Source: Dehalococcoidia bacterium (GTDB taxonomy: Bacteria; Chloroflexota; Dehalococcoidia; Plut-88900). From it: a DNA stretch of 64,000 nucleotides. The DNA lies in contig CBDFLQ010000006.1 of NCBI GenBank assembly GCA_965249275.1, positions 256,001-320,000 on the forward strand, written 5' to 3'. Both the position numbers and the translations under genes were made by a program. The first letter of the stretch is position 1. The number at the start of each line of letters is the position of its first letter. Under the pieces are notes generated by a model, which was not told where the DNA came from, made no database searches, and saw nothing but the letters and a program-made list of their open reading frames with translations. Of the stretch, positions 18,131 through 38,681 are shown piece after piece.

Positions 18131-18175
18131 AGTGACACGAACCCCTTGACTTGATGTGAACGTCTGTACTATATT
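18131..18175 (+). promoter_or_regulatory. sigma70-type promoter with LexA-like box (ncRNA copy 1)
   Basis: AGTGACA-N8-TTGACT (18146); -10 TACTAT or TATATT; GAACGTCTGTAC at 18158-18169 vs LexA consensus GAAC-N4-GTTC. Confidence 0.65.
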
Positions 18176-18179
18176 CACC

Positions 18180-18775
18180 CCCGATAGGCCAATCACCATT
18201 CTAAGATCAAAGGAGGAACCAAAAACCCAGGGAAGCCCACCCGACCCACCCGAGGACTCAACGCCTCAGCCCATCCCAACGGCCCTCGCGCAGGCCCGCG
18301 GCACAAGCAAACGCCGCCATCTCCTCACCCCACGGGTCCCGTGTACCCTTCCCTGACACCCAGGCGATGGAAGGCCCATCGACTCTAAGCAGCATGTAGG
18401 CTTGCGAGACCGGCCTACTCGACGCACCTCTCACCCGGCGCGTTCGAGTCAACGCTATGCGCATAGCCCGCGAATATACGGGGCCCTCCATTGCAGGGCT
18501 CGCCAGGGGGCTTCGCGCCCCCGGCTCTGACTCCACCGTCGTTCCCTTCGGAGATTCCCACCCCCAGCGGCGGAAGTTGAGTCGTACTCCCATCCCTCCG
18601 AGATGGTCGAGTAGCGTCTTGCGGACGAGACACCCCGCCTCTCTCGTCCGCCTCAGTAAAGACACGTGGGGTAATCGCAGGCTGGCCTCCCGCCCCTGCC
18701 CAAGAGTCCCGGACCTTCCGTCGCCTTCCCCCTCCAAAAAACAAACAACGAACCCAAACCCCACAACCGAATACC
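18180..18775 (+). ncRNA. Putative novel long structured ncRNA, copy 1 (~600 nt, ends estimated)
   Basis: Shares a 35-nt identical block, other conserved blocks, covarying long-range helices and the 3' tail with 37617-38280; a 4-nt indel between conserved blocks argues against a shared ORF. Confidence 0.7.
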
Positions 18776-25649: not shown

Positions 25650-26705
25650 TGTAGATGTCAGGTAATTCGTTGACAGAATTAGAGAGATTTAAGGGTTTGC
25701 AAAGGGGTCTTTCCGTCCATTGCCTGGTGGGGTCTCTGAGTATTGTAGTAGATCAGGTATTGCTGAAGCTCGTCCTTCAGTTCCGAGACCGACTCGAAGG
25801 TTGTCCCCTCCAGCAGGTCCTCGTTCAAGGTTCTCCAGAACCGTTCTATCTTCCCGTTGGTCTGGGGCCTATAAGGGCGGGTGTAGCGGTGCTTTATGCC
25901 CAGTTCATTGAGCATGCGTTCCATAGGGTGGCCCTGGGTGTTCCTTGGGGAGGCCATCTCGGGGCCGTTGTCGGTGAGGATAGCCTCGAATTGGATGCCG
26001 TACTCCACGTTAAGGAAATTGATGGACTTCAGAGTAGCCAACATCACGGAGAGACTCTTGATGTCTCCAACCACTTCGGCCCAGGCCAGACGGGTGAAGG
26101 CGTCGATGAGGGCCACGAGGTAGTAGCGGTGCTTAGTGCCCACGATGGTATCCCGGCTGAGGTAGTGGCTGTCCAGGTGGCCCAGCTCTCCTGCCCGGGT
26201 CTTGATGATCTTGCGCTTCGACTGCTGCATCGGCTTTGTGAGCCTATTGAAACCGTGGCGTCTGGTGATGGCGTAGATGGTGGAGGGCTTAGGGGTGTTG
26301 TGTTTAAGGATGGGTTTGAGTATGGCATAGATCTCGTAACGGTTGGTACCGTTAAGGCGCTCGTTGATGACCTTCTGCTCAATGTAGGGCAGGGTGCGGC
26401 GGGACTTCCACCCGGGACCCCGCTTACGGGGGAGGAAGGCGTTGTCGGAGGGGGAGAGGAGGAACCGGTTGTAGTACTTGGCGAAGGTCTGACGGCTAGT
26501 GCCGTGGAAGGAGTAGAAGTCCTGGGCGAAGCGGAAACGGGGATGCTTCCCTGCCTTGACCAGTTGATACTCATGGATGAGGAACCGCCACTTCTGAATG
26601 TAGTTCCGTTCAAGGGTGAGGTCCTTGCTATTGTCTCGCATTCTCGCCTCCAGATTGGTGTTGGCCTCTTATACCAATCTGTCAACGAATTACCTAACAC
26701 TTACA
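25650..26705 (-). mobile_element. Complete IS481-family insertion sequence (1056 bp)
   Basis: 28-bp TIRs TGTAGATGTCAGGTAATTCGTTGACAGA / TCTGTCAACGAATTACCTAACACTTACA (25/28); 5-bp TSD ATTCC at 25645-25649 and 26706-26710. Confidence 0.92.
25679..26641 (-). CDS. IS481-family DDE transposase (integrase core)
   Basis: GELGHLD, LIDAFTR, ILTDNGPE, HRYTRPYRPQTNGKIERFWRTL, YNTQRPHQAMDGKTP. Confidence 0.93.
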   Translation of the reverse strand: MRDNSKDLTLERNYIQKWRFLIHEYQLVKAGKHPRFRFAQDFYSFHGTSRQTFAKYYNRFLLSPSDNAFLPRKRGPGWKSRRTLPYIEQKVINERLNGTNRYEIYAILKPILKHNTPKPSTIYAITRRHGFNRLTKPMQQSKRKIIKTRAGELGHLDSHYLSRDTIVGTKHRYYLVALIDAFTRLAWAEVVGDIKSLSVMLATLKSINFLNVEYGIQFEAILTDNGPEMASPRNTQGHPMERMLNELGIKHRYTRPYRPQTNGKIERFWRTLNEDLLEGTTFESVSELKDELQQYLIYYNTQRPHQAMDGKTPLQTLKSL

Positions 26706-31395: not shown

Positions 31396-31623
31396 AGTGA
31401 CACCAACCCCTTGCCCCACCCCCCTCCCCCTATAATCTGTCTGTGACCATGCACTTTTCCCCACGTCCAGACCTGCTCCATTTGAGGATGCGCCGGGATT
31501 TCTTCCCAGAACAATCAAACAGGCACGAGCTTTCGATTGTAACAATCAAAAAACCCTCAAATCATGGCAACCCGCCAGCCAGACCTACCGGGGATTGTCC
31601 ACCGTAACCGTCGCATGTAATAT
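31396..31623 (+). promoter_or_regulatory. Two promoter-like sites and a palindromic operator-like site upstream of the FAH gene
   Basis: AGTGACA-N8-TTGCCC..TATAAT (31431); palindrome GATTGTAACAATC (31535-31547); TTGTCC-N17-TAATAT (31595-31623). Confidence 0.5.
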
Positions 31624-37181: not shown

Positions 37182-37471
37182 AGCTGGTGGGGGCCAGTGC
37201 GGTTTGGAGGAGGATCAGCCTTGGGAGAAGGTGTCACGTCCTCTTCCCTATCCTCTGAATGGAAGCCGACCGGCTGGTCGGTCGTAACGGTAGTCTCGGC
37301 CTTTGACTCTTCCACAGCAGCCGAGGCAAGGCCTTGCGCAGCGCGTTGAAACTCCTGGACCGCCCCGCGGAGGGACGTGACAAGTGAGATGAGTTTAGAA
37401 GGCCCGAAAAGCACCAAGGCTAGCGCCAGGATGACTAGGATTTCCAGGATTCCGACGTTTAGCGGGTTCAA
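37178..37471 (-). CDS. tatB: TatA/TatB family subunit
   Basis: NVGILEILVILALALVLFGPSKL; overlaps the tatC start by 4 nt. Confidence 0.85.
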   Translation of the reverse strand: MNPLNVGILEILVILALALVLFGPSKLISLVTSLRGAVQEFQRAAQGLASAAVEESKAETTVTTDQPVGFHSEDREEDVTPSPKADPPPNRTGPHQL

Positions 37472-37567
37472 AACTGAGTATCGCCTGGTTTATCGGCCCA
37501 TTTGACTGGTACCCTTGGGAGTATAGCATGGTGATAGATGTTCCCCCTGATCCCGTTCACATAGAGG

Positions 37568-37611
37568 AGTGACATATCCCTCTTGACTTTATAATACATG
37601 TGTTCTATTAT
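37568..37611 (+). promoter_or_regulatory. sigma70-type promoter with LexA-like box (ncRNA copy 2)
   Basis: AGTGACA-N8-TTGACT-N17-TATTAT; ATACATGTGTTC at 37594-37605. Confidence 0.7.
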
Positions 37612-37616
37612 TGGGC

Positions 37617-38280
37617 CAGTCTAGACCCGACACCCACCTTAAGGAGGTACCGCACAACCTAGGGAAGCCCACCCGACCCACCCGAGGACTCAACGTCTAA
37701 GCCCATCCCAAAGGGCGGCCCACAAGCCGTCCCACGGCTCAAGCGAACGCCGCCATCTCCTCTACCAAGGGCCCCGGCTATCCCTTCCCTGACCATCAGG
37801 CGATGGAAGACGCCCTGGTTCGCTAACGTTCCATGTGAGGCTCCTAACGGAGATGCCGCTCCTTCAAGCGGAATAGCGGTCGGATAGGCCCGGCGCCGAG
37901 GCCCTCTCGGTACACCGACTGCTCAATAAAGCCGGGAGCCGGTGGTCTACGCGCTCCGGGTCGCACCGGCAAACTTGGACACATTACGCCTGCAAGAGGC
38001 CCGGCATCGGACGCTGGACGGGCCTCCTTGCCGCCCTATAGCGGTGCAGCCAACCCCCGGAGTCGGACTCGGACCTGCTGGCCCTGAAGGTCCCTGCCCA
38101 TGTCCAGCGTATACAGGGCCACAGGCCGCAGCAGCGGCAAAAGCGGGCCGGGCGCCCTTGCCTCAGGGCGTCGGAGCACCCGAGGCACAGGAACAGGGGC
38201 AGCGTCCAGCAAGCGTCTTTCATCGCCTTCCCAAAACCCAACAGACAGAACTGAAACCGAAACCCCACAATCGAAGATGG
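37617..38280 (+). ncRNA. Putative novel long structured ncRNA, copy 2 (~660 nt, ends estimated)
   Basis: Paralog of 18180-18775; helices 37660-67/37784-91 and 37798-813/38213-228; tail AAACCCCACAATCGAA. Confidence 0.7.
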
Positions 38281-38387
38281 AACATCCGCCTCTGGAGGAC
38301 TGAAGAAAACGCCGGTGTGTCACTAATCTATTGAACGAATACACCCCCTTTCCCCTCCTCCCCTAACCCTGTTAACATTCTCGGCGC

Positions 38388-38681
38388 ATGGAACGGGAAC
38401 AGCTTCAGCAATTGATCTTCGAATCCGTCGAGGATTCTGCCATCGAACGATTTAAGGGCCGAGTCCCAGTCGGCCTCGGCAGGTCCACCGCCCGTGCCCT
38501 CATGTTCAAGATCACCTGCGATTGCGGCGTTACCGCCATGCTGTCGGTTGATACACCGGAAGAGGCCTCGGAAGAGAAGATCCACGACATGGTCCCCCAT
38601 CTAGCCAAAACCCTCGACAATCAGGCCTCCCAGTTCAAGCGCATCCCCTGTGATGCCCACTCCCGCATGTCTATGGGGTAG
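38388..38681 (+). CDS. Hypothetical protein with CxC and CxxH motifs
   Basis: Protein-like composition; ITCDCG and PCDAH; ends 24 nt before the FAD oxidase. Confidence 0.75.
   Translation: MEREQLQQLIFESVEDSAIERFKGRVPVGLGRSTARALMFKITCDCGVTAMLSVDTPEEASEEKIHDMVPHLAKTLDNQASQFKRIPCDAHSRMSMG

Follow-up and report, generated by a model that had tools for sequence, protein, structure and literature searches.

A MITE-like repeat family with preserved base pairing in a Dehalococcoidia genus and its apparent descent from a terminase-like gene

Introduction

Positions 37617-38280 of a 64,000-nucleotide stretch of a Dehalococcoidia bacterium genome (GenBank assembly GCA_965249275.1, contig CBDFLQ010000006.1, positions 256,001 to 320,000; hereafter the window) were described in a first-pass annotation, made from the letters alone, as the second of two copies of a structured RNA lying 19 kb apart (copy 1 and copy 2). 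The locus raises the question of what such a unit is: a gene for a structured non-coding RNA, a piece of mobile DNA, or the remnant of a protein gene. We found that copy 2 is an insertion with terminal inverted repeats (TIRs) and a target-site duplication (TSD), that it has many relatives in its genome, and that base pairing is preserved in it. The explanation that we favour, with a probability of roughly 0.55, is that copy 2 is a promoter-carrying, terminase-derived non-coding mobile element resembling a miniature inverted-repeat transposable element (MITE), which probably gives rise to a structured RNA.

Results

Copy 2 is an insertion flanked by a duplicated target

The region was aligned to the orthologous loci of five relatives of the window's own genome (the latter, G000, comprises 2.9 Mb in 7 contigs and is 87% complete). 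The unit was present in G002, had its interior replaced in G005, and was absent from G003, G001 and G007. The inserted block (37548-38343) opens with TGATCCCGTTCACATAGAGG and closes with CTATTGAACGAATACA, which form an imperfect inverted repeat of about 30 bp, and CCCCC stands on both of its sides, with a single CCCCC in the empty site. The junctions, on the plus strand of contig C6, read GTTCCCCC / TGATCCCG at the left and AATACA / CCCCCTTT at the right of the 796 bp, with a duplication match of 5/5. The first-pass annotation had seen neither a TSD nor a shared TIR, which was wrong for copy 2, both being located just beyond the segment that it considered; it had also named empty sites with TSDs as the observation that would speak against its reading, and exactly this was found, copy 2 being flanked by a TSD and the three relatives that lack the unit having the empty site.

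The same pattern was observed at other loci. The left-end motif occurs 17 times in G000, nearly always about 90 nt 5' of an element, and the right end 23 times; 15 copies are bounded by both TIRs, nine of them with a perfect 5-bp TSD and one with four positions out of five. Thirteen of these copies are 740-870 bp long, the remaining two 1029 and 1199 bp. Copy 2 thereby has the attributes by which MITEs are recognised: TIRs (left TGATCCCGTTCACATAGAGGAGTGACA, right GTGTCACTAATCTATTGAACGAATACA, imperfect, about 21/30 positions in our own reading), small size, many copies, and no transposase or conserved open reading frame (ORF) inside. Elements of the relatives that are missing from G000 leave the same empty-site pattern (for instance with the TSD TTTCG), and when 75 copies in the relatives' loci were compared with G000, 15 sites were occupied (5 with a diverged interior), 5 were empty, 7 were unclear or otherwise arranged, 28 had no synteny and 20 lay at the edge of the locus. 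In 9/15 TIR-bounded copies TTG directly follows the right duplication, which suggests insertion next to -35 boxes. Co-orientation with the downstream gene was observed for 39/54 copies, as judged with a crude ORF caller, and for 13/15 TIR-bounded copies in our own cross-reading of two listings.

The 22 rve-type transposase genes of G000 belong to three families of insertion sequences (ISs), whose TIRs are unlike those of the element and which are inserted in two hairpins resembling repetitive extragenic palindromes (REPs). The left and right ends of the element itself were found only at elements, apart from one solo left end at groES. A retroelement (retron, group II intron or DRT template) was considered and rejected, with no match to RVT_1 (PF00078) in the 87%-complete genome, and the TIRs together with the 5-bp TSD speak against a palindrome-associated transposable element of the IS200/IS605 type or an omega/reRNA.

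Several observations on neighbouring mobile DNA were made along the way. An IS of 1.06 kb with a 329-aa rve transposase and the TIR TGTAAGTGTTAGGTAATTCGTTGACAG lies at 25865-26140 of the window (G000 C6:281865-282140, minus strand) and at 11 other loci, always within a REP-like hairpin (GTCATTCC / GAGGCYCCGCGAGGAATC) and with a 5-bp ATTCC duplication. Another IS, of 1.35 kb with a 401-aa rve transposase, has copies 99-100% identical to each other at 8 loci of G000 (for instance C7:460031 and C5:368446); its target is a second REP-like repeat, CCCCTCTCCC..GGGAGAGGGCTAGGGTG / AGGGTGA, and the same repeat precedes many elements including copy 1. The solo left end corresponds to a promoter-upstream module, TGATCCCGTTCACATAGAGGGGTGACATCAACCCCTTG (G000 C6:928760-928860, minus strand), located directly 5' of groES-groEL and the CIRCE inverted repeat, so that one sequence may serve both as a TIR and as an element upstream of promoters.

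A genus-specific family with exchangeable interiors

Copies 1 and 2 resemble each other only in the 5' 170 nt (82% identity) and in a 21-nt 3' tail; their interiors gave no blastn match to each other, in agreement with the first-pass description. The 175-nt 5' domain that they share, which defines the elements that we call type A, gave 56 blastn matches at 54 loci of the 2.9-Mb genome, and all eight other genomes of the genus (8/8) were positive, so the predicted further copies do exist. A second repeat family under the same promoter, type B, occupies 12 loci in G000. Together they form a family confined to the genus, with no fewer than 66 promoter-carrying units per genome. Type A copies align from GTGACA..CCCCTTGAC-N17-TAYTAT, through AAGGAGG and invariant C/A-rich motifs, to GGCGATGGAAG, and the 3' side of the family consists of CTTYCATCGCC and a C/A-rich tail.

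The type A interiors, of about 390 nt, fall into clusters of 28 (including copy 2), 13, 4 (including copy 1), 3, 2, 2, 1 and 1 members, and hairpin modules have been exchanged even among members of one cluster, so that the interiors are mosaic. No interior motif common to all clusters was found beyond the arms of the closing helix described below, and a search for interiors antisense to, or captured from, other genes returned only family copies and a REP hairpin.

By DNA search the family was not found in three other genera of its taxonomic family or in 29 other families of the class. A pattern scan of the genomes of 185,579 species yielded at least 77 stretches, and among the matches listed all were in closed chromosomes of Dehalococcoidia bacterium metagenome-assembled genomes, whereas viral contigs gave 0 exact matches to the element pattern. 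Relatives 90-99% alike were found in runs labelled sponge metagenome, and two sponge-labelled RNA runs link the genus to sponges. Rfam 15 gave no match at the gathering score in the 64-kb window and none at E<=10 on 37500-38400; at E<=1, 16 other element loci gave just chance hairpin matches and one tRNA.

That tRNA gene (66 bits) lies directly 3' of the plus-strand element C5_615140+ (L005:2242-2315, G000 contig C5), and the alignment shows a tRNA-like 3' end behind the element C6_81089+ as well. Type B loci, such as C5:156945, C6:141657 and C7:724391, have a leader different from that of type A, with the hairpin GGCCCGAC..GTCGGCCC. A further promoter-linked module, GTGACA..CCCCTTGCCCC with a C-rich spacer and CTATAAT, was noticed near position 31397 of the window (G000 C6:287397) and at no fewer than 9 other loci; about 80 nt further on, repeated CAATCAAA-type motifs (..AACAATCAAACAGGCACGAG..) stand upstream of genes.

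Base pairing is preserved among copies

Every helix claimed in the first-pass annotation was recovered from the sequence. TAGGGAAG (37660-37667) is complementary to CTTCCCTG (37784-37791), AGGCGATGGAAGACGC (37798-37813) forms 15 Watson-Crick pairs and one G.U pair with GCGTCTTTCATCGCCT (38213-38228), GGGCGGC (37713-37719) and GCCGTCC (37726-37732) are both present, and the interior contains CTGGTTCGCT/AGCGTCCAG, GTTCCATGTG/CACAGGAAC, TGGACA/TGTCCA and GAGGCCCG/CGGGCCTC. In the minimum-free-energy fold of 37617-38280, GGGAAG pairs with CUUCCC, and 37798-37813/38213-38228 form part of a longer closing helix. At this locus taken alone, the 16-nt inverted match lies within chance for 64 kb (blastn E 1.5), and the folding energy of the plus strand had a z-score of -1.56 (1/20 shuffles as good), with +0.70 for the minus strand; folding stability against shuffles, which the first-pass annotation had proposed as a test of its reading, thus came out borderline.

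What goes beyond chance is recurrence at 54 loci together with covariation. The arms of the closing helix are specific to each family yet complementary within it (GACGC/GCGTC, GGTCC/GGACC, GAAGCCCT/AGGGCCTC, GGGAGGTTCCCG/CGGGAACCTCC), and this distal closing helix comprises on average 20 pairs per copy. The 5' hairpin (37713-37732) is compensated among copies as well (GGGCGGC/GCCGCCC, GGGCAGC/GCTGCCC, GGCCC/GGGCC, GGTCG/CGACC), the first two forms differing by a G-C to A-U double change. For the subfamily of copy 2 (11 sequences), the RNAalifold consensus contained 123 pairs in 21 helices, with 96.2% of the cells paired; 14 of the 123 pairs were changed on both sides, as compared to 3.2 in shuffles (0/500 reached 14) and 3-7 with slid partners, a count made on a structure that itself came from these 11 related sequences. 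The view that the helices covary, put forward in the first-pass annotation, is upheld by these arms and double changes. Base pairing is preserved in the element.

The 5' domain as a whole was less informative. RNAalifold on a MAFFT alignment of 80 such domains returned 16 invariant pairs and no compensatory one, because the variable hairpins were misaligned, and mutual information on this alignment was dominated by linked haplotype modules; on these grounds we make no statistical claim for TAGGGAAG/CTTCCCTG, a nearly invariant helix. Duplex energies were also compared between strands. The closing helix had a mean of -36.0 on the plus strand versus -36.8 on the minus strand, the plus strand being favoured in 33 copies and the minus strand in 45, and for the helix of the 5' domain the minus strand was better in 76/80 copies. 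The claim that selection acts on RNA structure therefore stands as far as kept pairing is concerned, and falls short in its RNA-specific part, as opposed to pairing in single- or double-stranded DNA, since no strand asymmetry was observed.

One reading of these data is that the units are decaying pseudogene debris, dead terminase-like fragments (see below) spread by a MITE and by recombination, whose structure would be residual inverted-repeat, GC-rich sequence without selected function. A ratio of nonsynonymous to synonymous substitution rates (dN/dS) near 1, terL homology, the modest z-score, the equality of the strands and the mosaic, module-swapped interiors all agree with it. We consider it improbable, however, given the excess of double-changed pairs over shuffled and slid controls, arm pairs that differ by family and stay complementary over some 20 bp, a 5' arm that moved away from the gene sequence toward complementarity, and an invariant promoter and AAGGAGG, which debris should lose.

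A terminase-like gene as the source of many interiors

The promoter module of the elements also heads two to three real operons encoding a 137-aa and a 462-aa protein (G000 C7:110680-112617, that is L129:1308-3118, and C5:3-2109; a third terS-like gene is at C6:411198), and one terS-terL copy lies directly upstream of rpmH-rnpA-yidC-jag. The 462-aa protein resembles the large terminase subunit, TerL: it matched PHROG TerL families weakly over both halves (E 2.6e-6, 3.8e-6 and 2.5e-4), and Pfam Terminase_6C was matched by 13/23 homologs. RQGGKNE, LLEIDE and three Asp-containing nuclease blocks are invariant in the 23-homolog alignment, and we take them to be the Walker (ATPase) and nuclease motifs. 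In a PDB profile search the top three entries were TerL nuclease domains, not significant (E ~0.45), and PDB sequence searches with the TerL-like protein gave no significant match. Within the genus, a TerL fragment used as a query found 8-33 matches per genome, 2-5 of them full-length paralogs; each of the three other genera of the family gave a single match, and genomes elsewhere in the class 0-2. Outside the genus, 23/32 Dehalococcoidia genomes were positive. Many Dehalococcoidia have the gene as a single copy, with 50-58% identity, and the database names are all "hypothetical protein".

Similarity of the elements to this gene depends on the family. A tblastn search with the 462-aa protein matched 12/12 type B copies, with 34-52% identity over residues ~193-374 and E values from 1.5e-8 to 1.4e-53, as well as 8/54 type A copies. 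One type A copy of family 3 gave a BLASTP match (E 4e-12) whose start coincides with the 5' arm of the closing helix (GDGGSID vs GKGRFID) and which stops at the 3' arm (GPSIA vs GPSIV), and a nucleotide profile searched with nhmmer hit 12/12 family-1 interiors and 0/42 shuffled controls. Counted by family, terL similarity was found in 12/12 type B, 12/12 family 1, 3/3 family 3 and 2/4 family 2 members (by TerL profile or tblastn), copy 1 not being among the last. Arm-like stretches are 389 nt apart in the terL gene versus about 375-415 nt in the elements, which retain only codons ~190/230-370 of it, and type B copies are mosaics of stretches nearly identical to TerL beside far-diverged ones. 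From these comparisons, the segment enclosed by the closing helix in many families derives from a piece of about 0.4 kb of the terL-like gene, codons ~230-367, in the predicted nuclease domain. In several families the interior, first taken for a free-form RNA domain, is accordingly a decayed piece of a terminase-like gene. In the terL gene only GGAAGG/CCTTCC can pair; the element has GGCGATGGAAGG in its 5' arm in place of GGCAAAGGAAGG of the gene, which lengthens the helix, and by this comparison the 5' arm is rewritten relative to the gene so as to pair with the 3' arm. For copy 2's own family a terL ancestry is suggested by analogy, through the shared arms, their spacing and the 5' domain.

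The same gene pair brings in the possibility that the units are recognition sites in DNA (pac-like or regulatory cis sites) for the orphan TerS/TerL-like proteins, serving as chromosomal marks for cutting, packaging or regulation. The terminase-like gene itself is their source; the pair of genes is conserved, occurring once in 23/32 other Dehalococcoidia genomes and being expanded only in the genus having the units; its ATPase- and nuclease-type catalytic motifs, as we name them, do not vary among the homologs; and pairing energies without strand preference are expected of an inverted repeat in duplex DNA. We nevertheless judge this very unlikely. No capsid or portal Pfam match was found in the 87%-complete genome, the units lack terS, in or near which known pac sites are located, the conserved promoter and AAGGAGG are given no role, and G.U-type helix variants would be mismatches in DNA cruciforms. 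A broader idea, which we hold to be improbable, is that the orphan TerS/TerL-like pair is a domesticated packaging or nuclease machine and that each genome of the genus provides it with 60-120 dedicated partners, namely the folded, terL-derived units with their promoters; these could be RNA decoys or regulators mimicking a structured part of the terL message, or chromosome-wide recognition marks. Terminase and fragments of its own gene would then make up one host system.

Full-length TerL-like relatives, with 49-55% identity, are also encoded by 139/215 candidate IMG/VR stretches (loci L145-L224). On one 21.7-kb IMG/VR contig the neighbours of the TerL-like gene have no informative Pfam or PHROG match, so that elsewhere the gene may belong natively to a phage-like element that has escaped recognition.

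The units show no protein-level constraint

For type B copies, dN/dS was 0.90 in the TerL frame versus 0.94 and 0.82 in the shifted frames, and 0.77-1.12 against TerL itself; it was 0.86-1.10 for family 1 and 0.83-1.06 for the subfamily of copy 2, the three frames being alike in both. Indels among near-identical copies are mostly of 1-2 nt, and no conserved ORF was found in copy 2's family. A protein-coding reading of copy 2 was consequently rejected, on account of a dN/dS of ~1 in all frames and the lack of a conserved ORF, and the interpretation of the element as non-coding was confirmed by the same data (dN/dS ~0.9-1.1 in all frames, small indels). To judge from these ratios, the terL-derived segment is no longer under protein-level constraint.

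It could still be argued that the units are genes for small proteins, with truncated terminase-nuclease-like products translated from them. In type B, a Shine-Dalgarno sequence with ATGAGTCGC opens 246-299 codons in frame with TerL residues ~193-374, and this frame is open in 12/12 copies, all of which retain the Shine-Dalgarno sequence and an ATG; several type A families have stop-free frames of 200-226 codons. The plus strand is poor in T (15%), a composition that disfavours stop codons by itself. Ratios in the TerL frame equal to those in shifted frames, catalytic Asp positions lost or interrupted in many copies, the missing last ~90 residues, the lack of a start codon behind AAGGAGG in type A, and, for copy 2's family, the lack of a conserved ORF and single-nucleotide indels among near-identical copies make this reading highly doubtful.

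Promoter, leader and RNA-library contigs

The predicted promoter of copy 2, TTGACT-17-TATTAT, is one of 2 promoter-like sites versus 0.3 expected, and the module GTGACA..CCCCTTGAC-N17-TAYTAT aligns across the other copies, so that a conserved sigma-70-type promoter does precede the element. Of 86 matches to the promoter motif genome-wide, 51 are at type A elements. Downstream of it, AAGGAGG is identical in 80/80 distinct copies, and in type A no start codon follows. RNAalifold pairs AGGAG with an invariant CUCCU (37749-37753 region), a pairing that covariation cannot judge as neither side ever varies. No intrinsic terminator was found in 37450-38450.

In Logan contigs from four RNA libraries (3 studies), the 5' domain had summed depths of 91, 54.8, 19.4 and 28.1 versus 0-12 on flanking genes, and coverage extended to the interior in a single run. 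The family has many copies, and contigs of this kind carry no strand, ends or level; as DNA carry-over would look alike, we draw no conclusion on expression from these depths.

These features bear on the main rival of our explanation, namely that the units are a domesticated family of trans-acting structured non-coding RNA genes, whose ~0.65-kb RNAs would be functional (as a sponge or decoy for a protein or ribosomes, or as a regulator tied to the TerS/TerL-like proteins) and which mobility merely seeded. The promoter, AAGGAGG and several single-stranded motifs are near-invariant while interiors differ by more than 25%, compensatory changes maintain the helices, the 5' arm was rewritten into a long helix, the family is present in all eight species of the genus (8/8) with 15/27 copies of usable synteny occupied, and contigs matching the 5' domain occur in 4/4 RNA libraries, which indicates presence only. 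On the other hand, there is no Rfam family at the gathering score or at E<=10, no universal interior motif (the arms alone being common), no antisense match of the interiors to other genes, no strand asymmetry and just a weak fold z-score; the RNA contigs give neither expression level nor transcript ends; and insertion polymorphism with TSDs points to continuing selfish spread. We regard this alternative as unlikely, though deserving of more weight than the others.

Weighing of the favoured explanation

In the explanation that we favour, that of a MITE-like element derived from a terminase gene, the promoter would fire and give a highly folded non-coding plus-strand RNA of ~0.65 kb. Its 5' AAGGAGG may act as a ribosome-binding 5' stabiliser, by analogy with STAB-SD of the Bacillus cryIIIA mRNA, and without a terminator transcription could continue into the downstream gene, where this has the same orientation. 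The element would spread through a DDE-type transposase supplied in trans, with a preference for sites next to promoters, and the RNA fold would serve the element itself (transcript stability or processing) and exert a cis effect on neighbours, rather than a proven function in trans.

Several points weigh against it. TIRs are present on only 15-23/54 type A copies, and no autonomous IS with the element's ends was found in the 87%-complete G000, the relatives not having been searched for such a partner. Copy 2's own family gave no match to terL (0/28 by protein profile, 0/26 by nhmmer), and the TIR motifs were not found in 8 full-length terS-terL loci. The fold of copy 2 is barely more stable than its shuffles, and the duplex energies give the plus strand no advantage that would mark selection on RNA rather than DNA. 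Transcription, transcript ends and read-through are predictions from the sequence. Neutral decay explains poorly that type B frames are open in all copies. Finally, the promoter and the 5' domain are conserved far better than the interior in old, diverged copies, a pattern more in keeping with a function for the host than with pure selfishness, and one that keeps a host-level RNA function as the main rival.

Features of the locus

The features of copy 2 and of copy 1 are collected in Table 1. The genes at both loci are as first described, with tatA/B-like and tatC genes upstream of copy 2 and a hypothetical gene and a DAO oxidoreductase gene downstream, and a Mo-enzyme and a TPR protein gene at copy 1. 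A second promoter-like site, TTGACT-16-TAGCAT, is located at 37502-37529 of the window, just 5' of the insertion point; the empty sites have it too, so the insertion of copy 2 seems to have hit the 5' leader of a 97-aa ORF that lies downstream.

Table 1. Coordinates of the element copies and their parts in the window.
Feature	Position	Strand	Remarks
Left TSD copy, CCCCC	37543..37547		occupied versus empty sites in G003, G001, G007
Whole inserted unit, 796 bp, MITE-like	37548..38343	+	orthologous site without the unit in 3/5 relatives
Left TIR, TGATCCCGTTCACATAGAGGAGTGACATAT	37548..37577	+	~21/30 positions complementary to right end (own reading)
Predicted sigma-70-type promoter, TTGACT, 17 nt, TATTAT	37583..37611	+	10/12 consensus matches
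Shine-Dalgarno-like AAGGAGG, no start codon behind	37641..37647	+	same in 80/80 distinct copies
Type A 5' domain: GAGGACTCAACG, AGCCCATCCC, variable hairpin, CGCCATCTCCTC, CTTCCC	37641..37797	+	82% identity with copy 1
Closing helix, 5' arm	37798..37837	+	in other families arm apparently = terL codons GKGRFID, remodelled to pair with 3' arm
Interior domain, family-specific, dense predicted pairing	37838..38185	+	11-member consensus fold, 21 helices
Closing helix, 3' arm	38186..38228	+	CTTYCATCGCC core apparently = terL codons GPSI(V/A)
C/A-rich tail, ending in AAACCCCACAATCGAAGAT	38229..38279	+	aligns in most copies; 90% identical to copy 1 over 21 nt
Small hairpins GATGGAACATC; TCCGCCTCTGGAGGA	38277..38313	+	recur after tail in many copies, sometimes tandem
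Right TIR, GGTGTGTCACTAATCTATTGAACGAATACA	38314..38343	+	23 right ends genome-wide, all 0.75-1.2 kb past an element start
Right TSD copy, CCCCC	38344..38348		occupied versus empty site comparison
Copy 1 (family 2), without TIR pair	~18146..18775	+	promoter TTGACT..TATATT; AAGGAGG 18210-18216; 3' arm GGACCTTCCGTCGCC 18711-18725

Discussion

Should the favoured explanation be correct, the units would be a bacterial repeat family for which an inner portion of a host terminase-like gene supplied the material, seemingly undescribed at the level of published abstracts, where our literature search found no description of the element or of the orphan terminase. This gene fragment would have been refitted with a strong promoter, rewritten to fold, and spread as a MITE to 2-3% of the intergenic space genus-wide. 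This bears on the birth of new non-coding RNAs out of coding sequence, on the choice of promoter-proximal targets by MITEs and the rewiring of neighbour genes, and on the role of the unexplained conserved orphan terminase of Dehalococcoidia. A practical warning also follows, as repeats that are T-poor and GC-rich can imitate genes and ribozymes alike through their helices and long stop-free frames.

Among known systems, bacterial MITEs come first. Correia/NEMIS of Neisseria, ERIC, RUP and BOX are bacterial MITEs or repeats that carry promoters or have structured transcripts. Like them, the element is short, non-autonomous and multi-copy, has TIRs and a short TSD, lies in intergenic positions that are often promoter-adjacent, and would be capable of donating promoters and of folding as RNA. 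Unlike bacterial MITEs of 0.1-0.3 kb, it measures about 0.8 kb and has a predicted multi-helix fold rather than mere TIR pairing; its body appears to be what is left of a host terminase-like gene, not of IS ends or of a gene for a transposase, TIRs are missing from most copies, and no matching autonomous IS was found. MITEs of Coxiella are reported to be linked to small RNAs (PMC5896051), and bacterial MITEs are covered in a review (PMC10969869).

With OLE, GOLLD, ROOL and HEARO, large structured non-coding RNAs of bacteria that are Rfam families without an assigned function, the element shares a length of several hundred nucleotides, many helices, compensatory changes and, in some of them, a link to mobile elements. 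It differs from them in having no Rfam match at the thresholds applied, in occurring dozens of times per genome within a single genus, each copy with its own promoter, and in an interior that is not conserved between subfamilies. As in phage TerL, the host 462-aa protein matches PHROG TerL and part of its homologs (13/23) match Terminase_6C; unlike phage TerL, the host gene is chromosomal, conserved across Dehalococcoidia and, in G000, without recognisable capsid or portal genes.

STAB-SD of the Bacillus thuringiensis cryIIIA mRNA is a 5' stabiliser, a perfect Shine-Dalgarno-like sequence near the 5' end with no start codon after it, and the likeness of the AAGGAGG of the element to it is one of analogy only. 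Silent cassettes and pseudogene archives for gene conversion are known from pilS, vls and msp2. As in these, part of one expressed gene would exist in many truncated copies that do not code, with a mosaic identity to that gene; silent cassettes are promoterless and encode surface antigens, whereas each copy of the element carries a strong predicted promoter and its apparent source is a cytoplasmic ATPase-nuclease.

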